Shown: positions 1,427 to 32,000 of the stretch, one piece after another
How the letters are laid out: each line of letters starts with the position of its first letter
Position numbering within the stretch: the first letter of the stretch is position 1
DNA from: a bacterium
Lineage (GTDB): Bacteria; UBP7; UBA6624; JBBIMK01
DNA: 32,000 nucleotides
Direction: 5' to 3'
NCBI GenBank assembly: GCA_037444445.1
Contig: JBBIMK010000011.1
Coordinates: forward strand, 29,083 to 61,082
Translations under genes and position numbers: made by a program
Notes under the pieces: model-generated
Told to the model about the DNA's origin: nothing
The model's input: the letters and a program-made list of their open reading frames with translations, nothing else
The model's database searches: none

Positions 1427-2581
1427 TTATATGGGCAGGATGACCCAGGCGAGCCAGAAGGGGGGCAAACCGGTGGAAAGGGGGGCAGATGTTTCCCACT
1501 GGTCGTTGTTTGTTCGTAAGATTCGTAAGCCGGGAGCGGATGGGTTTCTATCCAGCACGAATAGTTTATCTCCCCCGGGCGCCAAAGCAATTCTGGCAAG
1601 GTGAAATCCTTCGGAAACGAGAAGGGTCTGCTCCACCATTTTCGTAATCGGATTGAAACTCACCAGAAGGGTTTTGAAAGAAGAATCCGAGAGGATGGCA
1701 TATCCTTTGCCCGGCTGGAGAGCGAAATCTAACAAGTCTCCGCCCAGTGCTTCTTCCGTAATCAGGAAGCCGCGTGAGGAAAGGTTCACCGGGTTCACGA
1801 CTTCAATGCCCCCATCTAATACCCCGTATTCACCCGTATCCGCTACATACAGCAAGCCGTCCTGAAACAGGAGGTCAGTTCCCGCACAAGGATTTTTCCC
1901 CTGCAGGGGTATGGCATCGGGTTCCGGGGTGGAAGGATTGACATCTACGAGAGTATCCGTAGTGGCATCCACAACCGCTAAAAGGCCGTTCCCAGCAGGA
2001 GTGTAGAGATTATTCCGGTCCAGTCGCTGGATGGCGATGAATAGTCGGTTGTCGTGAAGCAGCATATAGGACATCTCAGGAAGTCCATCCGCATCAGCGA
2101 AGGGTGAGAGGTCAATTTCCTTCATAGTGGCACCATTGGTCAGGTTCATCTTGAGGAGTTCAGGACGGTCGTATCGGGAGATATAGGCGTAGTCGGGACT
2201 GATGAATTCCATATCATAGGGGTTTGAGCCAGCGCCTGTAGACCACTGGGAAGTAGTGGGCTGAAAACCCTGCCCGGGGTTCACCATCAGCACATTGTCT
2301 TGCCCCCGGCGGTTGATCACCCAGATGCGCCCTCTGTTAGAGTCATATACTGCGGTGGCATCGCTGTGTATGGGATAGTTCAGCACGGTCATCTGGTTTG
2401 TATCCATAGAATAGGTGGCATACTGGCCGGTTTGAAAATCGGTGGTGACGATGAAGGCGAATGAACTGCCCACGATGGGAGTCGGTAACGGAGGATTACC
2501 CCCGCACGCTGAGAATCCGGAAATCACCATAAACAGGCAGAGAGTGAGAACCCTCTGCCTCCTGATACAGAAAAGATACAT
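1427..2581 (-). CDS. putative lipoprotein, probable beta-propeller fold, under cobalamin riboswitch control
   Basis: 384-aa ORF. GGAGG lies 9 nt upstream of the ATG. N-terminal signal with lipobox-like ISGFSAC|GG. Recurring strand-rich blades (GRIWVINRRGQDNVLMVNP, RLFIAIQRLDRNN, LLYVADTGEYGVLDGGIEVVNP, KLFVLDRNPSAPGLRIL). Confidence 0.75.
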   Translation of the reverse strand: MYLFCIRRQRVLTLCLFMVISGFSACGGNPPLPTPIVGSSFAFIVTTDFQTGQYATYSMDTNQMTVLNYPIHSDATAVYDSNRGRIWVINRRGQDNVLMVNPGQGFQPTTSQWSTGAGSNPYDMEFISPDYAYISRYDRPELLKMNLTNGATMKEIDLSPFADADGLPEMSYMLLHDNRLFIAIQRLDRNNLYTPAGNGLLAVVDATTDTLVDVNPSTPEPDAIPLQGKNPCAGTDLLFQDGLLYVADTGEYGVLDGGIEVVNPVNLSSRGFLITEEALGGDLLDFALQPGKGYAILSDSSFKTLLVSFNPITKMVEQTLLVSEGFHLARIALAPGGDKLFVLDRNPSAPGLRILRTNNDQWETSAPLSTGLPPFWLAWVILPI

Positions 2582-2595
2582 TTTGTCTCGCCTCC

Positions 2596-2778
2596 TGCGA
2601 GATGGATTGAGTCTGGCAGGTCTCCCGGCTCCCGGTTCAGTCTACTGGCGGCGCCTTCCCACCCCGATTTTTCAGGGCAGTGGCATCTTGCCGCTTTCGT
2701 CCCCGGACACGGTGGCAGGGGCCACCCTCGCTTTCACGAGGTTCCCTTTTCAGGCTATTGCCACCAGACCCTCACCGC
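2596..2778 (-). promoter_or_regulatory. cobalamin (B12) riboswitch
   Basis: The minus-strand RNA reads GGUGGCAAUAGCCUGAAAAGGGAACCUCGUGAAAGCGAGGGUGGCCCCUGCCACCGU...GAUGCCACUGCCC...GGGUGGGAAGGCGCC...GAGCCGGGAGACCUGCCAGAC. It contains the conserved GGGAA/GUGAAA core, GCCACUG, GGGAAGGC and a B12-box-like AGCCGGGAGACCUGCC (plus coords 2611-2630). It is followed by hairpin UCUCGC-AGGAG-GCGAGA, which carries the SD, and then the ATG at 2581. Confidence 0.8.
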
Positions 2779-2780
2779 AA

Positions 2781-2789
2781 ATTATAGCA
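2781..2789 (-). promoter_or_regulatory. extended -10 promoter (TGCTATAAT) for the riboswitch transcript
   Basis: The reverse complement of 2781-2789 is TGCTATAAT, immediately 5' of the riboswitch. No convincing -35 element. Confidence 0.45.
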
Positions 2790-11830: not shown

Positions 11831-12787
11831 TTACTTCGGGAGGTGGAAGAGGGAAAGATGTAGAGGGTGGGAGTTGGTAATAAGGGCTTTGCCGATGTTT
11901 TTCCCACGGCTGAACCGCTTTTCGTATCCTTTGCCCACCGCTGGATATTTCTCCCAGGAAGGATATTGAACCGCCAGAGAGAAGAATTTTTGAATTTCTT
12001 CCTCGTCCAGTTCTGAAGATTCTTCACCGGCGCCTTCCAGGTCCTCTAATGCATCCAGAGAATAACTTAACAGGAGTTTTGGGGCGAGACGGGTGAACAG
12101 GGAGGGCGTGGAAAAAATGTCCAGGCAGAGGATTCGGCGCTGGGTGGCCGCCAGGAAACCTACCTGCTCTGGCTTCAGGATGAGAATTTCAGATTTCACA
12201 CCGGTAGATGTGGACCGCGGATTCACTATCTGGCGGGTGTACCGGGATAATTCCTGGTGTTTGGAGGCATAGGACTGGCTCATAGAAGAGGTGGCAGAAG
12301 CCACGCGCAGGGTGGAGAGTTTTCGGTCCACCTCATTCCAGATGCCTGCCTGGTCGGCCTCAAATCTGCCGGTGGTTTTCAGGGATTTGTGAACGGAGCG
12401 TGTGGACAGACCACGAAGGGTGGGATAGGCACAATATAAACTGCTGGAGAAGGCTTTTGAACCGCTCCATCGCCCCGCTTCCACACAGGCTACGGGAGCG
12501 GAAATCCGACTCTCCGCAGGCAGACGAAAGGAGGTAACGAACACCCGGTTCTGCAGGGCTCCGATGACCTCTTCGCCATCCAGAACGAACACATCCTGCC
12601 CCCCATCATTTTCCATTTCCACTTCAGGCACCCTCTCCGTATCGTGCACTCTCACCGATTTGGATGCCAGCCCTTCTTCCAGTGTCAGCACCGGGTCCTC
12701 CCCTTTCCCGCCTCCAAAAACCGGGAAGAGGTAAAGATTGCTGGAAAAAACAGGCTCACCCATTTCCCATTTCATTTCCTTTGCCAT
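11831..12787 (-). CDS. hypothetical protein resembling the ARPP-1 / DUF6569 family
   Basis: 318 aa. GGAGGAG RBS. N-terminal pattern LYLFPVFGGG...LTLEEGL...VPEVEMENDGGQDVFVLDGEEVIGALQNRVFVTSFRLPA...VACVEAGRWSGS matches my recollection of that family (LTVFPL...ELxVxNxxxxPVLLLDGEELxGAKQNR...VSCVEQGRW). Confidence 0.6.
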   Translation of the reverse strand: MAKEMKWEMGEPVFSSNLYLFPVFGGGKGEDPVLTLEEGLASKSVRVHDTERVPEVEMENDGGQDVFVLDGEEVIGALQNRVFVTSFRLPAESRISAPVACVEAGRWSGSKAFSSSLYCAYPTLRGLSTRSVHKSLKTTGRFEADQAGIWNEVDRKLSTLRVASATSSMSQSYASKHQELSRYTRQIVNPRSTSTGVKSEILILKPEQVGFLAATQRRILCLDIFSTPSLFTRLAPKLLLSYSLDALEDLEGAGEESSELDEEEIQKFFSLAVQYPSWEKYPAVGKGYEKRFSRGKNIGKALITNSHPLHLSLFHLPK

Positions 12788-12983
12788 TTCTCTCTCCTCC
12801 TTCTGCTTCTATTGTAGCACACCAGTTCGCGGGTAGGGCAGTGGGCTCGCATCCCAGTAAAAATGAACGATTGATTTTCCTCTCCCCCTGTTTCTATCCC
12901 ACGCAGAGGGACAGGAAAAAGAGGAAGGGTTGTATATACAATGAAAAGAGGATAAAATGGAAAGTGGTAAGGGGGTGCTGGAA

Positions 12984-13403
12984 ATGAGAGTGCATGAATT
13001 TATGAGCCACCCTGTGGTGACGGCAAAACCGGACGACTCTCTCCTCTCCGCAGCCCGGGCGATGAAAGAGCAAAATGTGGGGTGCGTGGTCGTGATGGAT
13101 GGCGGGGAAATTAAGGGCATTCTCACGGACCGGGACATCGTCATCCGGGTCGTCAGCCCCGGCCTGGAGCCGGAGGAGATCCGGGTGGAGGATGTGATGA
13201 CCCGGCAGGTGGTGGCGATTCGTGAGGATGCAGACATAGATTTTGCCCTGAACCTGATGAAAAATAATCGGATTCGCCGCCTGCCCGTGTTAAATGGCAG
13301 TGGCCAGCTCACCGGAATTGTGTCTATCTGCGACCTTGCCCGGGTAATCGGGCGGGATACCCAGAATTTCCTCGCCACCGTCTCCGCCCATCTCCCCCTC
13401 TGA
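12984..13403 (+). CDS. CBS domain pair protein
   Basis: MRVHEFMSHPVVTAKPDDSLLSAARAMKEQNVGCVVVMDGGEIKGILTDRDIV and a second CBS unit (VMTRQVVAIRED...RRLPVLNGSGQLTGIVSICDL). The ATG at 12984 follows AAGGGGGTG. The track start at 12957 is possible but lacks an RBS. Confidence 0.8.
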   Translation: MRVHEFMSHPVVTAKPDDSLLSAARAMKEQNVGCVVVMDGGEIKGILTDRDIVIRVVSPGLEPEEIRVEDVMTRQVVAIREDADIDFALNLMKNNRIRRLPVLNGSGQLTGIVSICDLARVIGRDTQNFLATVSAHLPL

Positions 13404-13419
13404 CACCCGGGCTTTTTTG

Positions 13420-14229
13420 ATGTTGCCCCGTTATGCCTCTCTTGCCTTCCTGAATGCGGTGTATGAAAAATACCACCGCCCCCTATTCATCCCCACCGAT
13501 GTGATTCTCTTCCCTCACCGCTTTCAAAATGAAACCGACATTGAAATCTCTGCACTCCTTTCTTCCATCCTCGCATTCGGAACGGTAAAAAGTATATCCA
13601 CGAACCTGGAAAGCCTCTTCAGAAGAATGGGAAAAAAGCCCTATGAATATATCCGTAATGCGCTCTGGCAAAGGGATGAAAAGTTTTTCTCCTCCTTCCG
13701 TCACCGTTTTGTTCGGGGTGAGGACCTGGTATGCATCCTCCGGGCTTTACAGAAGATATACGAACGATACCCTTCGCTGGAATCCCTGTTCTTACAGGGA
13801 TATTCTTCACCGGAAAGCCGGAATGACACCCCGATAAGCAACACAGGACACGCCATCGCTTTTTTCACGAGTGAAATCCGTCAGCACTGCCCCTCCTGTT
13901 CTTCTCTAACTCCAGGGGTTCGTTTTCTCCTTCCTTCACCCGGAAGGGATGGAAGCGGGAGCGCCTGCAAGCGATGGAACCTCTTCCTGCGCTGGATGGT
14001 TCGGAAGGATGAAATAGATTTCGGGCTGTGGCGGAATGTGAGCCCTGCTGACCTCATCATGCCATTAGACACCCACATCATCCAGATTTCTCGCAGGTGG
14101 GGGTTCCTGCACCGCAAGAGTATAGATTGGAAATCGGCGGAAGAAGTGACGCAGGCGTTTCGTCGTTTTTCCCCCCGTGACCCCGTGAAATACGACTTCT
14201 CCCTCACCCGCTACTTTATGCTGAAATAA
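13420..14229 (+). CDS. TIGR02757/DUF2400-like protein (HhH-GPD superfamily-like)
   Basis: ~269 aa. DIEISALLSSILAFG, ACKRWNLFLRWMVRKDEIDFGLW, IMPLDTHI motifs as I recall them for TIGR02757. The start is ATG 13420 or TTG 13417. Confidence 0.7.
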   Translation: MLPRYASLAFLNAVYEKYHRPLFIPTDVILFPHRFQNETDIEISALLSSILAFGTVKSISTNLESLFRRMGKKPYEYIRNALWQRDEKFFSSFRHRFVRGEDLVCILRALQKIYERYPSLESLFLQGYSSPESRNDTPISNTGHAIAFFTSEIRQHCPSCSSLTPGVRFLLPSPGRDGSGSACKRWNLFLRWMVRKDEIDFGLWRNVSPADLIMPLDTHIIQISRRWGFLHRKSIDWKSAEEVTQAFRRFSPRDPVKYDFSLTRYFMLK

Positions 14230-14865: not shown

Positions 14866-14908
14866 CCTTGACACAAATATAGGGGGTATAGTTTAGTATA
14901 ATAATAGT
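14866..14908 (+). repeat. promoter-like direct repeat, copy A
   Basis: CCTTGACACAAATATAGGGGGTA (23 nt, identical to 19013-19035), then 5 nt, then TAGTATAATAAT (identical to 19038-19049). TATAAT at 14897-14902 puts the predicted +1 on the A of the ATG at 14909. Confidence 0.8.
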
Positions 14909-15607
14909 ATGGATGGACGAAAGGCAAAACTTTCAGGCAGGATGAAGGGAGACAAATTTCGGGAGGAGGCCAGCTTGTTTCCTACACCAGAAGGGAAGGA
15001 GCCGGCACCTCCGCCGCTGAAGCCGGAGGCAGACTATTTCCATCCGGGCGGTAAACTGCTTTACACGGGTGCAGAGAACTGCACGGATGAGGAACTTGTG
15101 GCGATACTTATCGGGTATGGTTGCAAGGGGCGGACTGCCAAGCAGATTGCCGACGAAATCCTGCTGGACTGGTATTCGGTGAACGGCATGATGAATAAGT
15201 TCAATCGGCAATGTATTACCCGGGAAGACTTGCTTACATATCGGTGTATGGACGAACTGAAAGCACGACGGGTCCTGGCAGGTCTTGAACTTGCACGGCG
15301 AATCTGTAAGTATGTGGGCTACCAGGGGCGGACGCTGGAGATGATGAAGGATGACCGCCCGGATGTAGAAGTGCTGACGGACCTGTTCCATGACCTGGGC
15401 ACCAGGCTTGAAGAAGCGCGGCTCATCGCTCAAGGATACCTCAGCAAATATAACGGCTTATTGGGATGGATGGGCAAGCCGCTGGCGGATATGTTGAAAA
15501 TCAGGGGCATTGGCAAGGTGAAAGTGGCGCGCTTGGGCACGGTTTATGAAATCGCACGCCGAACTACTAAGCGGGAGGACCTGGACTGGCGCGTTTGGGT
15601 GAAATGA
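14909..15607 (+). CDS. tandem RadC-N-terminal-like (UPF0758 HhH) protein lacking the JAB/MPN domain
   Basis: 232 aa. Module 1: LLYTGAENCTDEELVAILIGYGCKGRTAKQIADEILLDW...ELKARRVLAGLELARR. Module 2: ARLIAQGYLSKYNGLLGWMGKPLADMLKIRGIGKVKVARLGTVYEIARR. Both follow the RadC N-terminal pattern (L-D-ELLA-LL-G-KG...A-L...GL...L..I-GIG-KA--L-A--EL-RR). No HNHPSG-type JAB motif. Confidence 0.7.
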   Translation: MDGRKAKLSGRMKGDKFREEASLFPTPEGKEPAPPPLKPEADYFHPGGKLLYTGAENCTDEELVAILIGYGCKGRTAKQIADEILLDWYSVNGMMNKFNRQCITREDLLTYRCMDELKARRVLAGLELARRICKYVGYQGRTLEMMKDDRPDVEVLTDLFHDLGTRLEEARLIAQGYLSKYNGLLGWMGKPLADMLKIRGIGKVKVARLGTVYEIARRTTKREDLDWRVWVK

Positions 15608-15616
15608 GGTGAGATT

Positions 15617-18151
15617 GTGGTGGGAAAGATAACGGCGAGCACTCCCCAATCAGAAGGAACTGGAATCCAGCATATCAACCGGCAAATCCCACCCCTCGCC
15701 CACGCGCCGATGCATGTCTGGCACAAGTTCTGGTCTCGCAAGACCTGGAATGTGGTCGCAGAGCATATCAAGTGCTATTGCCCGGAGGGCGGGGTCGTTC
15801 TGGACCCGTTCGCGGGCAGCGGGGTCACCGCTATGGAAGCTCTCAGGAACGGACGGCGTGCCATCGTTTGCGATATTCTGCCCGTTGCCACCGAAATTAT
15901 TCGCCTCACCATCCAACCCGTGAACATTGAAGAACTCCAAAAAGCGTTCCGACGGGTAGAGAGGAGAGTAAGGAACAGAATTGAAAGATTGTATATGACC
16001 AAGTGTCGGAAATGTGGGGCTGAATTCCCCTTTACCTGCGCTGTCTGGGATGCGGGAGAATTGGAAGAAATCCGTTATGAACAGTGTCCGAAATGCGGCG
16101 ACCGCAGGGAACAGAATTGCCCCCCCACATCTTCGGATATTGCTTTGCTTCGTCAGATAGAATCGCGGCAGGTCAAGGAATGGTATCCGCGGAATCGGTT
16201 GTACTATCCGGACGGGCGGGCTTTCAAGGAAAAACAGCAGTACGAATCACTGGACCAACTGTTCACAAAGCGGAATCTTCAAGCCCTCGCCTGGCTCATG
16301 GATGCCATAGAGAAAGAACCCAACCCTTTGCTCAGGGATTTTTTGAAGATTGCCTTTACCTCAATGGTCCACTTGTGTAGCCGGCTTGCGGCCGCTGGTC
16401 GTCCCGGTTATCGCCCATTTAGTGGCGTGGGATGGAACCAGCAGAGTTACTGGTATACGCCGCTTTACTTAGAATCCAATATCTGGCTCAAATTTGAAAG
16501 CGCCATCTTTGGTCCACAGGGGCTTCTCAGAGGCAAGGAGGAATCTAATGAGTATTTTGCAAATAAACGCATGGTCAAAACCCTCCGCACCTTTCTAAAG
16601 GGGACGGGCCACATCTACATCCACACCGGCGATTGCCTGAGATTGATGAAACAAATGCCGGATGGCTGTGTGAATTACATTTTCACCGACCCACCTTATG
16701 CATCCTCCATTCAATTCGGAGAACTGGCATATCTCTGGGTTGCGTGGCTCAAGAAAGACAAGGGCTACTTAGACAGCCTGTTGCGAGATGAGGTTGTGGA
16801 AAACCTGAATCAAGGCAAATCTTTTGATTTTTATATAGCCAGAGTGAGAACAGCCTTTGACGAAATGTTCCGCGTCCTCAAGCGGGGTGGGTGGCTGACC
16901 GTCACTTTTCATAATCCTACACTCAAAGTGAGGAATGCAACAATCCGGGCCGGGCATATTGCGGGGTTTGATTTTGAGCATATCCATCTGCAGGAACTGG
17001 CTCGTCCTTCGGCAAAATCGCTTCTCCAGCCTTACGGGTCTGCCCACGGTGACTTCTATCTGCGATTTCGCAAGCCGGCCGCTGTAAGGACTTTGACCGC
17101 AGGTGAACGAACAGCAGATAAGTTTGAGCGTGTGGTCGTGGATGCGGTGATTCAAGTCCTTGCAGAGCGCGGGGAAGCAACCCCAAAGTATGTGATAGAT
17201 AACTATGTGGACCCCATCCTCTCCAGGAACGGGTTCTTCCCGTCCATAGAAGTGGACGGAAAAACATTGAGTGTGGATGAGGTTCTGAAGAGGCACGAGG
17301 GGCAGGAATTCATCAAGGTGCCAATGGAAGTTGGTGGGCACAAGGGCTATGGCTGGTGGTTGAAAAACCCGCAACAGGTCAAGAACCTTGAGAAAATCCC
17401 CCTTTCAGAGCGTGTGGACCAGGCGATTATACGCTTGCTGATGGAGAGGGGAAAAGCCACTTTCACAGAAGCATTGGAGAAAGTCTTTACAGAATTCCCC
17501 AATTCGTTGACTACGGACAGCACAAGCGTAAAGGAAGCGCTGGAACGCTATGGCAACAAGCGAGGAAGTGGCTCCTCCGCTACTTATGTGCTAAAGCCTG
17601 TCATCAGACAAACTGAAAGAGAGCACGACCAAATCATCGGGCACCTCGCTGAAATCGGCAGGGCCCTCGGATACGGGGTATGGATCGGGATGCCCGAACA
17701 ATCCAGAACATATCCACGCAAGAATAAACCCCTGAGTGAATGGGTTACCGCAGACCTCAACCAGGTGGACAATGTGCTGAGCCTTGAGGATGCAGAAAGG
17801 GTAGATTGTCTCTGGGTGAGCGAAAGAAAAATTGTCTATTCTTTTGATGTAGATAGGTTTACTCCGCTGATGGAGTCGCTGAGGCGCGGCGCCAGTATCT
17901 CAGAACCTGTGAAACGGTATCTTGTCCTTCCGGATGAACGCCACACTCAATTCCAGAAAAGGCTGAAGAACCCGCTGTTCAACGAGGATTACGAGAAATA
18001 TGGATGGGATGTTCTTTACTTCAGCGCCCTTCAGTCCAACTTCAAATCCCTGAAAGCCGGCAAAAAGACGATAGAAGAAATAGCCGGTTCCCCTCCCGAG
18101 AATCCCCACCGCAATCCCGAAGTGAAGCCCACAAAATTATTTGACCCCTGA
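15617..18151 (+). CDS. DNA N6-adenine/N4-cytosine methyltransferase with permuted motif order, Zn ribbon, winged-helix-like middle region and C-terminal PD-(D/E)xK-like domain
   Basis: 844 aa. The GTG start follows AGGTGAG. Motif X/I at the N-terminus (MHVWHKFWSRK...VVLDPFAGSGVTAMEA, aa 32-75). CxxC...CxxC at aa 130-160. TGDCLRLMKQMPDGCVNYIFTDPPY at aa 337-361. FRVLKRGGWLTVTF. C-terminus EREHDQIIGHLAEIGRALGYGVWIG...VDCLWVSERKIVYSFDVDR (aa 667-747). Confidence 0.85.
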   Translation: MVGKITASTPQSEGTGIQHINRQIPPLAHAPMHVWHKFWSRKTWNVVAEHIKCYCPEGGVVLDPFAGSGVTAMEALRNGRRAIVCDILPVATEIIRLTIQPVNIEELQKAFRRVERRVRNRIERLYMTKCRKCGAEFPFTCAVWDAGELEEIRYEQCPKCGDRREQNCPPTSSDIALLRQIESRQVKEWYPRNRLYYPDGRAFKEKQQYESLDQLFTKRNLQALAWLMDAIEKEPNPLLRDFLKIAFTSMVHLCSRLAAAGRPGYRPFSGVGWNQQSYWYTPLYLESNIWLKFESAIFGPQGLLRGKEESNEYFANKRMVKTLRTFLKGTGHIYIHTGDCLRLMKQMPDGCVNYIFTDPPYASSIQFGELAYLWVAWLKKDKGYLDSLLRDEVVENLNQGKSFDFYIARVRTAFDEMFRVLKRGGWLTVTFHNPTLKVRNATIRAGHIAGFDFEHIHLQELARPSAKSLLQPYGSAHGDFYLRFRKPAAVRTLTAGERTADKFERVVVDAVIQVLAERGEATPKYVIDNYVDPILSRNGFFPSIEVDGKTLSVDEVLKRHEGQEFIKVPMEVGGHKGYGWWLKNPQQVKNLEKIPLSERVDQAIIRLLMERGKATFTEALEKVFTEFPNSLTTDSTSVKEALERYGNKRGSGSSATYVLKPVIRQTEREHDQIIGHLAEIGRALGYGVWIGMPEQSRTYPRKNKPLSEWVTADLNQVDNVLSLEDAERVDCLWVSERKIVYSFDVDRFTPLMESLRRGASISEPVKRYLVLPDERHTQFQKRLKNPLFNEDYEKYGWDVLYFSALQSNFKSLKAGKKTIEEIAGSPPENPHRNPEVKPTKLFDP

Positions 18152-23649: not shown

Positions 23650-26600
23650 TTACCGGGTGGGAGCAGGCATCCTGAAAACAAGAATTGCCGCAAGAAGGAG
23701 CGTTAGAGAAAGAAAAATAAAGATGGTTGTGATAAACCCGGGCTTCTTCCAGATAGGCTCTTTAGCGTAGGCTTTATTTTCTGCCCATTTCAGAAGAGGA
23801 ACTGGACCTGCTCCCACATCTTTTTCCTGATATTCCACCGCCCAATCATACCGGGGTGCCCGAGCGTCCGCATTTCCTGCATATACCCTCAAGGGTGGGG
23901 TATAACGCTCGGGATAATATACCCTCCGCTCCCATTGCTTCCACTGTATTTTCAGGAAATTCAATGGCTCGTTATCACCATGCTCAATCACGAATCGCAA
24001 ACTCCGGGGAGACCGGAAGTCGGAAAGACGGATGGATAGGGGATTATCAGGATGCCCTTGATAGCGAAACAGTCGGCCGGTGAGAGCTTCCCGCCATTTG
24101 CCCTTGCCTGCCTCCTCATCCGGAATTTCCAGTCTGTATTCTCTAAAAAAATTTCTCTCCTCAATGTGCAATTCCAGGACTTCAACAGGTATATCGGGAT
24201 AGGGCCATTCTACCTCAATGATGGTTTGCGCCGGATTCTTCTGGTGTGTAATAGACTGACGGGTTGGAAGGATTTCACGATAAATTTCGGGTTTCTTCTG
24301 TATGTGCGCCGCAGTAAAAGAGTCAAAACGGATGGTTTTCGTTCCTCCCAGGTAAGTTTCCACTTCTATCTCTGCTTTGAAGAATTTGTAGGTGACCCCC
24401 GGGAAAGACAATTGAAGATGCTCCTGGGCCGGGGTTTGGAGTTTATACACCTCCCCCTCTGCTACTTGCTTCCACCTCTTTGCGTCTTCACTGGCAAACA
24501 CCTTTGCTCTCCCTTTAAAATATCCACTCACCTTCAGGTTCACCGAAGTGACGCCCCGGGTGATGGGAGATATGGCCTCGGCAGACACTTCAAATTTCTT
24601 CCTGTCTGGCGAGGAAAGTATGTTGAAATAACTTAATGAATAAGGAGTTTCCACAGATTTGCCCTGCATCACACGGAATACATAAGGTATCTCTTTTCCT
24701 TTCGCATCTATAAGCCGGAGGTCGGATGCATCGGAGTTTGTATACTGAAAGGTGGATTCGTCCACGATGAAGTAGTAGACAGGCCCTGCCAATGGCGGGG
24801 CTCCTGCCTCGCGCACCATTTTCCAGGACTTCGGGTCAAAGTCTGCGAAAGAGTATGTGGAGAAGAGAAAGAAGAAGAGGAGGGTGAAGAGAGAGGCTTT
24901 ACCCATTCTTCCTCTCCTGTATAAATACGATACCACGAGCAAGATGACTCCCAGCGCAAAGGCGCTCAGGAACCTCACCTCCGGGGGCAAAAAGAAGAGG
25001 TCATACAGAAAGACTTTAAAGAAAGTTACCCCAGCCAGGACGAAACCAAACGCCCGAAGCACAGGGCTAACGAATCGGAATCCCAGCCCGATAACAACAG
25101 CGGATTCCAGTAGCCAGAAAAGGGTTTGAATCAAGCGAGCCGACTGAGAAACATCCAGATAAGAAGCCACATACCAGGCTTCTCGGAACAGAAATAAAGG
25201 GGTGGAAATCAAGCCAAGAATGCCCCAGATGAAAGAAAGTTTCTTTTCCTCTTCCTTGAGTTGCTCCTGAAATCTCTTCCAGAAGAAGCCCGCATAGAAA
25301 AGCACTCCCATAAGGGTATAGGCGGGGATAGTGTTTTTATGGAGAAAAGGAATGGGGGAGGGCGATATTTCCATTCCGGAATACACAAACCACTCGGGGA
25401 GATAAAGCAGAAACAACACCATCAGGGCGATACCCCCCAGAACTCGGAAGGAAGCATCGGAAAGCACGGCGCTGAGGTAAATGAGGAAAGCGGCCTCCAG
25501 GCACATCGCCGGGAAAAGATAATCATAATTCTGCGTGAAGTTCAAAAGGGCAATGTCCAGCATAATCAGGCTGGAAAAGGTGGACACAAATCGCAGAGAG
25601 GCATCGTATGCCCTCTTCCCGGAGAAAAATAGACCGAGCAGGGCGAAAAATGTCCCCACCAACAGCGAAAACACGGCATATCCCCCTTGCAACTCTACCT
25701 GGGAAACCCTGCCATATAATTTCTTGACCACCTCCCCTACCCATTCCCCGGATAGGTAGAAAAAGACTATAGAATTAGCAAAAAAAACTAATGCATCTAC
25801 TAACCGGATGGGAAATTTCCCATACATTCTTTTGGTGATGATGGAAAGGGTGAAGAGAGCAAAGGCGAGGGTAAATACAACCTCACTGGCACCCGGTGAG
25901 ATTCTGATAGACCATTGCGTGAAAAGAATATAGATGGGGTAGGTCACAAAGAAGACCAGGGAGAAATTGAGCAACCACCCACGAAAGGAATTGAAGAGTG
26001 CCGCTAATAGAAGCAAGACGAAAAAGTATAAAGAAAATTCTATGAACCTGCCTTTTTCAAAAGATAGGATGGTCAATGTGCCGGCAATCAAAGTGAGTGT
26101 CCCGAGAAATGACGAATTGTGGCGGAGCGCGAAAGCAAATCCAGTCAGGGTGATGGAAAAAAGGAACAGGGTGTATACCTCGGAAGGGATTTGCTGATAC
26201 AGGAAATAAGAAGCGAAGACGGAGATGAATAACACCGCAATTCCCGCACCTGAGAGGGCATCCGACTCCCGCCACCGATGTTTGTTGAACAGCCATTCCC
26301 CTCCTGCCAGCATTGCGATTCCAGCCCCAATTCCCATCAGCACCCTCTCCGCAGGCCCAATCCATCCCTTCTGGAAGGCATACAGGAGGAAAAGCAGGGC
26401 GGAAACCACCAGAGCAAACCCGCCCAATCGGCTGAACCATACCCTTCCCACCAGGGTTTCCCATTCCAGGGTTATCGGTAGTTTTTCCCTCTTTACCGCT
26501 AATGGTGTGGGTATTTTCGGCTGGACAACCTGGGGCTGTTCTGACGGCTCTAAAACTCCCACCTTCCTCTCCAACCGCTCCAGCCGCGCCTCTACTTCAC

Positions 26601-26832
26601 GAATTTTCTGAAAGACATCCGCTTTCTCACCTAAAAACCCTTTCAACGCCCAGACTAATGCCACCACCCATCCAATCACCGTCCAGCCCAAAAGCAGGTT
26701 CACCAGGGTGATTGTCCCGGCATCTTTTAACCTCCTGTAGTAAGCGATGAAAGAAGGCAGAGCATAAACGGCAATATAAAATAAAATCTGTAAAATCCCC
26801 TGGGCTCCCCATAAAATCCAGAAAGGTTCCAT
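23650..26832 (-). CDS. 1060-aa membrane protein: Imm-superinfection-like N-terminus + DUF2339-like polytopic region + DUF3999-like C-terminal region
   Basis: N-terminus YALPSFIAYYRRLKDAGTITLVNLLLGWTVIGWVVALVWAL, then coiled coil REVEARLERLERKV, then ~20 hydrophobic helices. An internal signal-peptide-like MGKASLFTLLFFFLFSTYSFA (Met codon 24906-24904, preceded by GGAGAGG) leads into a ~400-aa soluble region ending in a TM helix. Confidence 0.8.
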   Translation of the reverse strand: MEPFWILWGAQGILQILFYIAVYALPSFIAYYRRLKDAGTITLVNLLLGWTVIGWVVALVWALKGFLGEKADVFQKIREVEARLERLERKVGVLEPSEQPQVVQPKIPTPLAVKREKLPITLEWETLVGRVWFSRLGGFALVVSALLFLLYAFQKGWIGPAERVLMGIGAGIAMLAGGEWLFNKHRWRESDALSGAGIAVLFISVFASYFLYQQIPSEVYTLFLFSITLTGFAFALRHNSSFLGTLTLIAGTLTILSFEKGRFIEFSLYFFVLLLLAALFNSFRGWLLNFSLVFFVTYPIYILFTQWSIRISPGASEVVFTLAFALFTLSIITKRMYGKFPIRLVDALVFFANSIVFFYLSGEWVGEVVKKLYGRVSQVELQGGYAVFSLLVGTFFALLGLFFSGKRAYDASLRFVSTFSSLIMLDIALLNFTQNYDYLFPAMCLEAAFLIYLSAVLSDASFRVLGGIALMVLFLLYLPEWFVYSGMEISPSPIPFLHKNTIPAYTLMGVLFYAGFFWKRFQEQLKEEEKKLSFIWGILGLISTPLFLFREAWYVASYLDVSQSARLIQTLFWLLESAVVIGLGFRFVSPVLRAFGFVLAGVTFFKVFLYDLFFLPPEVRFLSAFALGVILLVVSYLYRRGRMGKASLFTLLFFFLFSTYSFADFDPKSWKMVREAGAPPLAGPVYYFIVDESTFQYTNSDASDLRLIDAKGKEIPYVFRVMQGKSVETPYSLSYFNILSSPDRKKFEVSAEAISPITRGVTSVNLKVSGYFKGRAKVFASEDAKRWKQVAEGEVYKLQTPAQEHLQLSFPGVTYKFFKAEIEVETYLGGTKTIRFDSFTAAHIQKKPEIYREILPTRQSITHQKNPAQTIIEVEWPYPDIPVEVLELHIEERNFFREYRLEIPDEEAGKGKWREALTGRLFRYQGHPDNPLSIRLSDFRSPRSLRFVIEHGDNEPLNFLKIQWKQWERRVYYPERYTPPLRVYAGNADARAPRYDWAVEYQEKDVGAGPVPLLKWAENKAYAKEPIWKKPGFITTIFIFLSLTLLLAAILVFRMPAPTR

Positions 26833-29554: not shown

Positions 29555-30382
29555 TTATCGCTCGTGGCCCTCCCGAGTTTCCTGATACAGTTTTTCAAAA
29601 GCCCCTTCCGCAGAAGTTCCAGTCCAGATTTCCAACGAGCGGGCTCCCTGGTGGAAGAGCATACACAACCCATTCTCCACCGGGGAGCCCCTCTTTTTTG
29701 CCTCTTCCATCAGCCGGGTGATGGACGGGTAATAATTCAGGTCATACACCAGATGCTCCGGAGTAAGGGCCTGGATGGGAACAGGAGGCATTTCGTGGAC
29801 ATGGGGATAGGCGCCCAGAGGTGTCGCATTCACGAGAATAGCCGGCTGACGAAGAAGAGTGGCCAGTTCGGAATAGGGATAAACTGAACACTTCTGATTT
29901 AGCACAACGAGCGCATCTTTGGAACTTCTGGAGATGAAAACCGGCGAGATGTGGCGCCGGAGAAGAGCAACCGCTACCGCCCTGGCGCCCCCTCCAGTCC
30001 CGAGGATTATCCCTCGCTCCGGTAGCGAAAGCCCTTCCCTCCCCTGCCATTCTTCTAACCCCCTTTCAAAGCCATACACATCCGTGTTGTATCCGGTCAT
30101 GCCAGAGGGTTGAATGACCACCGTGTTCACGGCGCCCACAGAAGATGCCTCGGGTTCAATCTCAGTCAGAAAGGGCTGAATCCTCTCCTTAAAAGGGTGC
30201 GTAACCTGAAACCCGTGAATCTTCAAAGCCAGCAGGGCTTTGATTCCCTCCTTCAGCCGTTCAGGCTTGATGGGAAAAGTGTGATAGGAAATATCCAGAT
30301 TCTCCCGTCGGGCTACCTCCATCATCATCCATCGGGAAAGCGAGCCCCGAAGAGGATACCCGATGAGCCCAAAGATTTTCAT
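29555..30382 (-). CDS. aroE: shikimate dehydrogenase
   Basis: IFGLIGYPL..SLS, GFQVTHPFK, GAVNTVV, GYNTDVYGF, ILGTGGGARAV Rossmann motif. Confidence 0.85.
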   Translation of the reverse strand: MKIFGLIGYPLRGSLSRWMMMEVARRENLDISYHTFPIKPERLKEGIKALLALKIHGFQVTHPFKERIQPFLTEIEPEASSVGAVNTVVIQPSGMTGYNTDVYGFERGLEEWQGREGLSLPERGIILGTGGGARAVAVALLRRHISPVFISRSSKDALVVLNQKCSVYPYSELATLLRQPAILVNATPLGAYPHVHEMPPVPIQALTPEHLVYDLNYYPSITRLMEEAKKRGSPVENGLCMLFHQGARSLEIWTGTSAEGAFEKLYQETREGHER

Positions 30383-30546
30383 CCCGCTACCTCCCTCGCC
30401 AATGAGTTACTTTACCACAAAAAATGCCGGCGCAGTGCCTGTCCTCACCCGTCTGGAAAATGGGCAATGAAGGGTGGTCAACAAATCCTGCATTTTGTTA
30501 CCTCAAAGAGGGCAATGGGGGCTGAAATTCCCCCATTTTTTATTAC

Positions 30547-30585
30547 TTGACAGAAGTAACAATTTAGCAATAATGTTATGGATGG
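30547..30585 (+). promoter_or_regulatory. sigma70-like promoter resembling the island repeat (copy C, partial)
   Basis: TTGACA (30547-30552), 16 nt, AATAAT (30569-30574). The segment TTTAGC-AATAAT-GT-TATGGATGG parallels copy A's TTTAGTAT-AATAAT-AG-TATGGATGG. The ATGs at 30578 and 30582 are within a few nt of the predicted +1. Confidence 0.45.
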
Positions 30586-30912
30586 CAATGGGTGAGCGGG
30601 AGGAAACCAGATATATTCATTCTGGAGAACGAGAACCAGATTCAAGAACCTCTACCTTCTGTGAACGAGATAAAATCTTCACTACGGTAAATGAGTGATA
30701 TGATTATGACCCTTTAGAAATTATGGTGCCCCGGAGGTTTTAGACGAGGAAGAGCGAGAAAAATTCCAGAGGAAAGACTTAAAAAGCTGGAGGAAGAGGT
30801 AAAAAAGGAGTTTCCGCGGGATTATGCACTTCAGCCAGTCCATAAAGGCAAGAGAAAATTATGACAAATTTATTCGGAACGCTACAAAAAAGGGTTTGAA
30901 GATGAGGGTGAA

Positions 30913-31563
30913 ATGAGAAGAAAGGCAACGATATATCTGGATACATCGGTTCCGGGCGCCTTTTTTGACCCACCAGATAGTCCGGTTTATAAAGCGACTG
31001 CTACTTTCTGGGATAATGTGCTTCCTGATTACGATGCTTATATTTCAGAACTTGTTGAAATTGAAATAGCGGATTTAAAAAATATCAGCAGGAGAAAAAA
31101 ACTGGAAAGTCTTATCCGAAAATTTAAAGTATTAGAGGTTTCTCAAGAGGCGGTAGAGGTCTCTCAAGAATATCTGAAATTATTACGGATACCTGAAAGA
31201 GATGCGCTCCATGTTGCTATTGCCAGTGTGGAAGGAATGGATTATCTTGTTACATGGAATTTGCGGCATCTTGCCCGGGAGCGAACACGAAGGGCGGCGG
31301 ATTATATTAACCTGACCCTGCTCTTGAAAACAATTGTTATTTATACTCCATTAGATTTTATTGACGAGGTTAATATGGAAAAAAAGGAAGCAACCCGATG
31401 GGAATTGGGTTGTTTTGACATATTTGAAAGCCCCTTCTTAAACGAGTTACACAAAATACGAAGGGAACAGTCAGAAAAGCCAGAAGGATTATCTCCCGGG
31501 GAACTTGCTGAACATATAAAGTATCAAGTAAGAAAGCTAAGAAAAGGAAATCCATGTAAATAA
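30913..31563 (+). CDS. PIN-domain (VapC-like) protein with ~65-aa C-terminal extension
   Basis: IYLDTSV (first acidic residue), ISELVEIEI, ERDALHVAIASVEGMDYLVTWNLRHL (distal acidic residue). After ~aa 150 an in-frame segment begins at GAGG-N6-ATG (31376): MEKKEATRW...LNELHKIRREQSEKPEGLSPGELAEHIK. Confidence 0.7.
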   Translation: MRRKATIYLDTSVPGAFFDPPDSPVYKATATFWDNVLPDYDAYISELVEIEIADLKNISRRKKLESLIRKFKVLEVSQEAVEVSQEYLKLLRIPERDALHVAIASVEGMDYLVTWNLRHLARERTRRAADYINLTLLLKTIVIYTPLDFIDEVNMEKKEATRWELGCFDIFESPFLNELHKIRREQSEKPEGLSPGELAEHIKYQVRKLRKGNPCK

Positions 31564-32000
31564 TGAAACCGACTGAACTTTTACATCCAGAGCAAAGACG
31601 CCCAGGCAAAGCCTACTTAGTGAATGAACTTCGCAAAGCGGTATATACATGGCAGGAACAAGGTTATCCAGGCACAACACCTTCCACAAAAAGACTTTTA
31701 AAATACTGCCCAACTAAAAAAGTTATCTCATTTTTCTTTCTTTTTTTTCTTGAGGAGAGTATAGAAAAACTACTAAGTAGGCCCACACCAATAAAGTATC
31801 TGATTAACATCATAGGAAAGAGATTTTTCTTAGAGGTTGTTAAAGACAAAATAAGATATATGACAAAATTTGTCAGAAAGGATTGGTATTTGTGGTTCAG
31901 CCAGAGTGTGGCATATCCGAACTCAGTTCGTCTATACCACCAAAATAGAAGGATATCCGAACTCAGTTCGGATATAAACGAGCTATATGCCATTGCGCTT
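31563..32000 (+). CDS. open reading frame running off the window; N-terminus faintly resembles helicase/Res-type restriction subunits
   Basis: The ATG overlaps the PIN stop (TAATG). 146 codons are open to nt 32000 in AT-rich DNA, and it is absent from the track only because no stop is reached. MKPTELLHPEQRRPGKAYLVNELRKAVYTWQEQGYPGTTPSTKRLLKY...FFLEESIEKLL recalls the (V)NEIR..V..WR..GYPG.T..T..LL..WF...F..Q.EAIET pattern. It competes with minus ORF 31664..31993. Confidence 0.3.
   Translation, partial: MKPTELLHPEQRRPGKAYLVNELRKAVYTWQEQGYPGTTPSTKRLLKYCPTKKVISFFFLFFLEESIEKLLSRPTPIKYLINIIGKRFFLEVVKDKIRYMTKFVRKDWYLWFSQSVAYPNSVRLYHQNRRISELSSDINELYAIAL
31913..31975. repeat. two copies of the 18-mer ATATCCGAACTCAGTTCG, each hairpin-forming
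   Basis: Copy 1 is at 31913-31930 (imperfect palindrome with TCTATA). Copy 2 is at 31953-31970 and extends to the perfect 11+1+11 palindrome ATATCCGAACT-C-AGTTCGGATAT (31953-31975). The copies are spaced 40 nt apart. Confidence 0.6.

Follow-up and report, generated by a model that had tools for sequence, protein, structure and literature searches.

The window analyzed here is a 32,000-nt stretch of contig JBBIMK010000011.1 (positions 29,083 to 61,082) from the bacterial genome assembly GCA_037444445.1. Its gene at 15617-18151 encodes a putatively active DNA methyltransferase (MTase) whose C-terminal part is homologous to a restriction-enzyme domain family, and a small gene for a protein of the RadC N-terminal family (14909-15607) lies just upstream. 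We judge the chances to be about even that these two genes form a modification-plus-cleavage system in which methylase and nuclease share a single chain. The larger reading frame is a real, intact gene rather than a chance one. The coordinates of the features are collected in Table 1.

The earlier note on this DNA had described an 844-aa open reading frame (ORF) with the block of motifs X and I at the N-terminus and a DPPY motif about 290 aa later, and this is what the gene encodes. The protein matched PF01555 (N6_N4_Mtase) with 67.2 bits, above the gathering cut-off of 26.7, with the two halves of the profile swapped: aa 45-94 aligned with profile positions 169-218, and aa ~332-433 with the N-terminus of the profile. 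The same swap was obtained against M.RsrI, where aa 45-96 corresponded to RsrI 230-281 and aa 329-380 to RsrI 37-87, and thus the permuted order proposed in that note held against both. Positions 9-90 of the PF02086 (Dam family) profile covered aa 48-127, the CcrM and PRK11524 models matched the half at aa 330-460, and matches to Type II methyltransferase models reached 1.9e-34. Among 30 homologues, D63, P64, F65, G67, S68, and G69 of motif I and D358, P359, P360, and Y361 of motif IV were invariant. The four cysteines of the CxxC-N23-CxxC ribbon, which had also been noticed before, were invariant in the same set; because both motifs and the ribbon are kept in this way, the methylase half looks active.

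An AlphaFold model of the whole protein, built on the 30 homologues (mean predicted local distance difference test, pLDDT, of 79.6), showed a methyltransferase fold split between aa ~30-100 and aa ~330-460. A Foldseek search with the full model returned methyltransferases only, TTHA0409 and Escherichia coli Dam among them; Dam superposed over ~455 columns with a target-normalized TM-score of 0.55. The order of motif X, motif I, recognition insert, and motifs IV-VIII, together with the superposition on Dam, shows that the linear order is that of the alpha class, although the sequence is nearest to the beta-class PF01555 enzymes. Our protein therefore resembles Dam in linear order and fold, whereas RsrI and CcrM are closest by sequence and differ in order; to both types it adds a zinc ribbon within the insert and a 380-aa C-terminal extension. 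The insert of ~230 aa is presumed to be the target recognition domain (TRD). Because the motif is DPPY, N6-adenine is the likelier methylation target, and N4-cytosine is possible too.

The layout had been compared in the earlier note with the COG1743/DUF1156 methylases, and this comparison stood as a resemblance and failed as a family assignment. The PADLOC model for PglXI (PDLC02541) matched with 2.3e-37, aligning aa 167-451, part of the insert included, with positions 334-588 of its 919. In PglXI and the DUF1156-type methylases, the TRD insert follows core strand 2 (10.1101/2025.10.09.681413). Both these DrmMI-like enzymes and our protein have a core of the PF01555 lineage, with the S-adenosylmethionine (SAM) block first, a large insert after core strand 2, and the DPPY half last. 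The window protein is shorter, lacks the DUF1156 N-terminal domain, and is not accompanied by partner genes of the bacteriophage exclusion (BREX) or DISARM (defence island system associated with restriction-modification) type; only the window protein adds winged-helix-like modules, a C-terminal domain of the NmeDI_C family, and a RadC-N partner. Membership in the DUF1156 family was ruled out by the NCBIfam model NF042963 (anti-phage DUF1156), which scored 28.6 bits against a cut-off of 1000 and matched aa 353-431 only; Pfam DUF1156 gave no match at E<=0.1.

More distant relatives, with ~25% identity over aa 22-583, consist of the methylase alone, have the same permuted order, and are found on plasmids. 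In two of these, from plasmids of Kurthia and Thiospirochaeta (L087 and L088), the gene adjoins an AAA ATPase (unnamed in L088) and a DUF2357 protein, loci which we take to resemble McrBC/LlaJI-like restriction loci.

The C-terminal segment has the text HDQIIGHLAEIGRALGYGVWIGMPE ... VDCLWV ... FDVDRFT, in agreement with the earlier reading. The precomputed Pfam records place the domain PF27126 (NmeDI_C) in P0001, a protein 100% identical to that of the window, and in all relatives. When the domain consensus was searched against plasmids with tblastn, it found genes annotated as "type II restriction endonuclease" with ~33% identity and E-values down to 4e-6, and the domain profile aligned end to end with two stand-alone proteins of the same annotation (75-80 bits). 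At the level of sequence, homology of the C-terminal domain to this restriction-enzyme domain family is well supported.

We determined the conservation of residues in 204 family sequences. H670, E694, D730, W733, and T749 were kept in 100% of them, and R757 and R775 were present wherever the column was filled. Position 744 was Glu in 199 sequences and Asp in five, and position 746 was Glu in 201 and Asp in three, with no other replacement at either. The resulting motif, H..D..F-E-V-E-x-T-T..R, is near-invariant, and the relatives carry FEVEHTT or FEVEHST, which fits the FEVEHT strand given in the earlier note. H, D, W, F-E-V-E-x-(T/S)-T, and R are also kept in the distant subfamilies and the stand-alone endonucleases, where E694 varies. 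This pattern supports a functional site in the C-terminal domain.

A separate model of aa 655-830 (pLDDT 88.7, predicted TM-score 0.85) has the order long helix with H670, strand, loop, strand, strand, helix with R757, strand, and helices. D730 precedes one strand and the pair 744-x-746 ends the next one, so that an acidic-x-acidic pair occupies the usual (D/E)xK position, where there is no lysine. BamHI has E-x-E at this position. The succession of helix, strand, hairpin, helix, and strand plausibly fits a restriction-endonuclease-like core.

R.NmeDI of Neisseria meningitidis is a characterized restriction enzyme of 351 aa. It makes 12/7 cuts on either side of RCCGGY and counts among the symmetric Type IIS enzymes; in Type IIS enzymes, the cleavage domain is mostly found at the C-terminus (PMC2095814, PMC4081073). 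According to the precomputed Pfam assignment, our protein shares the family of the C-terminal domain of NmeDI. The two are also alike in that a recognition module is joined to a C-terminal module, and NmeDI cleaves away from its site (PMC2095814, PMC4081073). R.NmeDI differs in having no methyltransferase domain, being served by separate C5-cytosine methylases. The same C-terminal domain, with the motif H..D..FEVEH(S/T)T..R, occurs in stand-alone proteins of ~420 aa (in Caulobacter, Azospirillum, Pseudarthrobacter, and others). Their ~235-aa N-terminal domain is unrelated to our protein, and PF27126 is their sole Pfam domain. We reached these other architectures by the tblastn search of plasmids, not through the profile search of protein clusters described below.

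Two winged-helix-like segments had been proposed between the methylase and the C-terminal domain. The order of secondary structure in the AlphaFold model agreed with them (canonical H-E-H-H-E-E in aa 596-659 and a variant of it in aa 500-582, pLDDT about 60-88), and profile searches gave zero matches. The whole of aa 457-844 was unmatched by NCBIfam, PADLOC, PHROGs, and a Pfam release without PF27126.

In the Type IIG/IIC enzymes (MmeI, Eco57I, BpuSI), an N-terminal nuclease is followed by a gamma-class MTase and a C-terminal recognition domain, and these enzymes are sporadic and variable in specificity. Our protein is like them, in domains and not in activities, since one polypeptide has an MTase, a recognition module, and a restriction-type nuclease domain, and to this extent the comparison with Type IIG made in the earlier note was apt. 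The layout that defines Type IIG is not kept, since the MTase is not of the gamma class and the nuclease-like domain is C-terminal. The order of the window protein is the reverse; its MTase belongs to the PF01555 type, follows the alpha order, and encloses the recognition insert, it has a partner gene, and its family is uniform.

Neither the partner gene nor the large, strongly conserved chromosomal family described below had been pointed out in the earlier note. The partner gene encodes 232 aa. NCBIfam RadC models matched its product twice in tandem, over profile positions 3-90 of 212 only, and neither Pfam nor NCBIfam found a JAB/MPN domain in it. The likeness to RadC (UPF0758) is thus in the N-terminal domain; the partner lacks the JAB/MPN domain that defines RadC, has the HPGGKL motif, and is frequently found as a tandem duplicate. 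Its forms are a lone domain of ~100 aa, a tandem double of ~200-235 aa (the form in the window), and two genes, and HPGGKL stands at the start of each first RadC-N copy. A RadC-N homologue lies directly upstream of the methylase gene and on the same strand in 72 of the 85 related loci with enough flanking sequence, and it is the only conserved neighbor among these ~85 loci. In the window, 9 nt separate the partner stop codon (TGA, 15605-15607) from the GTG start at 15617; the two reading frames, taken from stop to stop, overlap in the majority of related loci.

The remaining 13 of the 85 loci lack the partner, and six of the 13 (in Bacteroidota, Ignavibacteriota, and Chitinophagales) have an enolase gene one or two genes upstream. 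Enolase is directly upstream in L037, L042, L044, L053, and L083, and one gene away in L038. This synteny points to stable chromosomal residence in those lineages. A phosphoglucomutase-like gene is located downstream of the methylase in seven loci. Two loci (L004 and L092) have two Peptidase_M14 genes before the partner-methylase pair although their methylases, which share 52% and 61% identity with the window protein, are only distant relatives of each other in the family, which suggests that local synteny is kept in some lineages. Upstream of the partner ATG at 14909, there is a TTGACA at 14868-14873 and a TATAAT at 14897-14902, and there is no obvious ribosome-binding site. The 23-nt spacing of the two hexamers is too long for a standard sigma-70 promoter, and the closeness of TATAAT to the ATG may point to a leaderless transcript.

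Table 1. Features of the two-gene locus, in positions of the window (aa, residues of the 844-aa protein)
Feature	Position	Strand	Basis or remark
Partner gene, 232 aa, tandem double RadC-N-terminal domain (UPF0758_N, helix-hairpin-helix (HhH) type), HPGGKL motif	14909..15607	+	Pfam 1.8e-12
Shine-Dalgarno-like GAGGTGA	15606..15612	+	Overlaps partner stop, just 5' of GTG; putative function
Methyltransferase-NmeDI_C gene	15617-18151	+	GTG start, 844 aa
N-terminal part of MTase fold, aa 32-100	15710..15916	+	WHKFWSRKTW (motif X), LDPFAGSG, then core strand 2 and helix
Motif I LDPFAGSG, aa 62-69	15800-15823	+	Read from sequence
Insert of ~230 aa between MTase halves	15917..16603	+	Long helix, C4 zinc ribbon, helical bundle (AlphaFold)
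Zinc ribbon C130-x2-C133-x23-C157-x2-C160	16004-16096	+	Strands aa 127-154
C-terminal part of MTase fold, aa 330-460, motifs IV-VIII, TFHNPT	16604..16996	+	Profile matches
Motif IV DPPY, aa 358-361	16688-16699	+	Preceded by FT (FTDPPY)
Two winged-helix-like modules, aa 500-582 and 596-659	17114..17593	+	AlphaFold secondary-structure order only
NmeDI_C-type alpha/beta domain, aa 661-815	17597..18061	+	PF27126 on identical protein P0001
Conserved residues H670; E694; D730	17624-17626; 17696-17698; 17804-17806	+	Alignment
Conserved residues D744; D746; T749; R757	17846-17848; 17852-17854; 17861-17863; 17885-17887	+	

A search of a collection of 5.8 billion proteins gave 1,819 matches, and the best 120 of them were nearly all full length (about 806-866 aa), with 50-68% identity. 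A relative is encoded in at least 503 of 599 candidate stretches in the genomes of GTDB species. Nearly all members derive from metagenome-assembled genomes (MAGs), and they represent more than 20 phyla, including Nitrospirota, Desulfobacterota, Planctomycetota, Verrucomicrobiota, Bacteroidota, Ignavibacteriota, Elusimicrobiota, Zixibacteria, Binatia, Lentisphaerota, and groups of the candidate phyla radiation (CPR). When we searched for cultured or named relatives from the distant representative P0156, only metagenome and MAG proteins of the same family were found. The profile of the C-terminal domain matched 1,291 representative clusters (50% identity) at E<=0.001, and the best 150 of these were all co-linear with the whole protein or fragments of such proteins. 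One Nitrospinae MAG (RIFCSPLOWO2_12_FULL_45_22) has two different copies of the family (L012 and L061), which are paralogues or a sign of bin contamination. Databases annotate the domains of the protein automatically, and literature searches on NmeDI, on RadC plus methyltransferase, and on COG1743/DUF1156 turned up no account of the family or its HhH partner.

The favored reading, a modification-plus-cleavage system, would work as follows. The N-terminal half would be a SAM-dependent amino-methyltransferase of the PF01555 lineage, and the insert with its zinc ribbon and helices would read a fixed DNA site, which the methylase half would modify. The two winged-helix-like modules would tether the NmeDI-type domain to the methylase. 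This domain would be a metal-dependent endonuclease with a restriction-enzyme-like core, of the BamHI variant of PD-(D/E)xK, and it would cut or nick unmodified DNA near the site or at a distance from it, as the Type IIS enzyme NmeDI does. Cleavage would probably follow dimerization, as in other Type IIS-like cleavage domains. The small HhH protein may be a non-specific DNA-binding subunit that acts as a dimer or pseudo-dimer, which fits its recurrent tandem duplication. In favor of this reading count the profile and fold matches of the methylase with its invariant motifs I and IV, the NmeDI_C assignment and the similarity to stand-alone restriction endonucleases, the near-invariant candidate active site and its placement in the domain model, and the closely linked partner gene. 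What the analysis shows is the intact gene, its domain homologies and conserved residues, the linkage of the two genes, and the distribution of the family; cleavage, specificity, the part played by the partner, and the biological role are inferred.

The results that weigh against such a system concern the fold of the C-terminal domain, the distribution of the family, and the state of the domain in this genome. As to the fold, a Foldseek search with the C-terminal domain by itself yielded no significant match, either in the PDB (best E 0.39) or in BFVD (best E 0.02). Domain profiles of 17 and 11 sequences gave chance matches (leucine-rich repeat proteins, spectrin, TorS) against all PDB chains, and a stand-alone endonuclease homologue had no match among PDB sequences. 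In favor of a nuclease, the weak Foldseek matches were enriched for restriction-type nucleases (Hef, MUS81-EME1, Zip2-Spo16, Avs3, Mrr, MmcB-like, ERCC4, and a phage "restriction endonuclease"). The nuclease fold of the earlier note is thus retained as a domain of restriction-enzyme type, and the PD-(D/E)xK fold itself, argued from topology, residue positions, and these weak matches, is plausible but not proven, because no solved structure matches the domain significantly.

The stand-alone NmeDI_C proteins occur in cultured Alphaproteobacteria and Actinomycetota and also on plasmids. Their genes have no methylase nearby and adjoin genes for copper and heavy metals. The domain can thus occur outside a classical restriction-modification pair, and the restriction-enzyme label of these proteins may be misleading. 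Four such genes were located at 3290-4555 of L089, 3140-4516 of L090, 5001-6260 of L093, and 5001-6272 of L095. Identity among the 120 best matches, which include Alphaproteobacteria and a Deinococcus, was 65-93%. Their repeated neighbors encode DUF305, DUF411, cupredoxin/COX1, a metal-responsive regulator, and a P-type ATPase.

The distribution of the family is also unlike that of mobile systems. The minimum pairwise identity among 75 full-length members was 43%, and an identity of at least 43% over the full length across more than 20 phyla is atypical for restriction-modification. The presumed recognition insert is conserved to the same degree as the remainder of the protein. Full-length members were absent from 72,556 plasmids, 50,697 phage genomes, and 2.9 million IMG/VR contigs, which ruled out a phage- or plasmid-borne element. 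The setting in the window is one of housekeeping genes (gyrB, fabF, aroA, DAHP synthase, era, NAD kinase, a TlyA-like methylase, and HtrA), the synteny is lineage-specific (the enolase gene upstream in Bacteroidota and Ignavibacteriota), and the G+C content of the gene is the same as that of its surroundings, which ruled out a recently acquired island.

These observations agree with a real, if less probable, alternative, in which the protein is a conserved chromosomal ("orphan-like") methyltransferase with a role in maintenance or regulation. The NmeDI_C domain and the HhH partner would then serve something besides restriction, such as strand-specific nicking in methyl-directed repair or processing, or the handling of incoming or replicating DNA. 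The membership of the partner in the RadC N-terminal family, the unpaired stand-alone NmeDI_C proteins, and the clustering of sequences, which partly follows taxonomy (clades of Verrucomicrobiota, Desulfobacterota, and Nitrospirota), are also in its favor. The clustering has clear exceptions: a CPR sequence is 75% identical to one from Deltaproteobacteria, and the Planctomycetota are spread over several clusters. The tree thus mixes phyla, so transfer does occur, and this speaks against an orphan-like methylase. No repair or replication gene is found among the conserved neighbors, and the partner is missing from part of the loci. Moreover, the fusion of a methylase with a restriction-type cleavage domain is the classic signature of discrimination between self and non-self.

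We regard as doubtful a wider proposal that combines cleavage with such a role. It holds that the pair is an unrecognized two-gene modification/cleavage system with one fixed specificity, passed on for the most part vertically and kept on the core chromosome in over 20 phyla, CPR included, that are mostly uncultured, and that it serves genome maintenance and is not a mobile restriction-modification system. Its possible roles would be methyl-directed strand discrimination or nicking and the processing of incoming DNA.

The last set of results concerns this genome. Where the family motif reads FEVExTT, the window protein has the rare form FDVDRFT. The Asp-for-Glu substitutions pointed out in the earlier note are real and rare: Asp occupies both positions in three of the 204 sequences, the closest relatives, P0002 (68% identity) and P0003 (61%), have FDVE, and FDVD occurs in one other family sequence. 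Comparison of the window protein with the main family gave identities of 0.65 in the methylase core and 0.58 in the recognition insert, against 0.73 and 0.60 within the main family. The corresponding values were 0.44 against 0.66 in the winged-helix part and 0.35 against 0.51 in the C-terminal domain. The branch of the window protein, P0002, and P0003 has thus diverged mostly in the winged-helix part and the C-terminal domain, and the core and insert are normally conserved.

Such divergence, with both Glu residues replaced, would be in keeping with a nuclease half that is decaying in this genome, leaving a methyltransferase only, with the C-terminal domain kept for DNA binding or dimerization. 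We consider this unlikely. Positions 744 and 746 are still acidic and H670, E694, D730, W733, T749, R757, and R775 are all kept, which argues for a retained, perhaps altered, function rather than decay, without being proof of it. The frame is intact through the domain, with no truncation, and the partner gene is kept and closely linked. PD-(D/E)xK motifs accept Asp at their first acidic position, which also counts against decay. The replacement conserves charge, and the nuclease may be retained or weakened. We conclude that the window gene is an ordinary, somewhat divergent member of the family with a rare Asp-for-Glu variant.

An RNA or protein methyltransferase (RsmD-, Trm11-, or HemK-like) is very improbable. 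The Joint Genome Institute (JGI) names "16S rRNA G966 N2-methylase RsmD" and "tRNA G10 N-methylase Trm11", weak matches to Cons_hypoth95, UPF0020, and RsmD around motif I, and the strong conservation and housekeeping neighbors would fit it. Those matches span only the generic SAM-binding loop and are below or near the cut-offs, whereas the full-length matches are to DNA MTase models (PF01555, the Type II models, and PglXI) and the accessory parts are all DNA-related (winged helices, HhH partner, restriction-enzyme domain). The slightest chance of all goes to a methylase component of a multi-gene BREX type 3 or DISARM-like defense system, which would agree with PglXI as the best PADLOC match and with the weak anti-phage DUF1156 match, since neither BrxC/PglY, PglZ, BrxHII, BrxF, or BrxA nor a helicase or other defense gene was found nearby in the window or the ~85 related loci, and the DUF1156 score is far below its cut-off. 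Both readings are effectively excluded.

Other features of the window were recorded beside this locus. A cobalamin riboswitch (Rfam RF00174, 100.8 bits; 2598-2783, minus strand) is located upstream of a 384-aa ORF without a Pfam match (1427-2581, minus strand). An ARPP-1 domain protein (PF20208, 1.2e-70), followed by a 189-aa ORF without a Pfam match, occupies 11831-13378 on the minus strand and is adjoined by a DUF2400 gene (13417-14229, plus strand). A predicted membrane protein of 1060 aa with DUF2339, Imm_superinfect (superinfection-immunity), and DUF3999 is encoded at 23650-26832 on the minus strand. The G+C content of positions 30001-32000 is 0.42, compared with about 0.50-0.55 elsewhere, and this end, with a PIN-domain gene at 30913-31563, may be an acquired or a toxin-antitoxin segment.

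Enzymes that unite methylase and nuclease in a single chain are known, and some of them, such as MmeI, serve as tools. The architecture found here differs from the known ones in its alpha-ordered methylase of the PF01555 type, its insert with a zinc ribbon within the fold, its C-terminal NmeDI-type domain, and its HhH partner. Members of this very large family are alike from phylum to phylum, reside on chromosomes, and come almost exclusively from uncultured bacteria. Should the nuclease be active, the family would constitute a new restriction-modification subtype whose members share a single, widespread specificity; it might then find use as a reagent, and it would mark a DNA methylation motif common in environmental metagenomes. 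If the activity of the nuclease is not one of restriction, the pair may be a conserved epigenetic or maintenance module.

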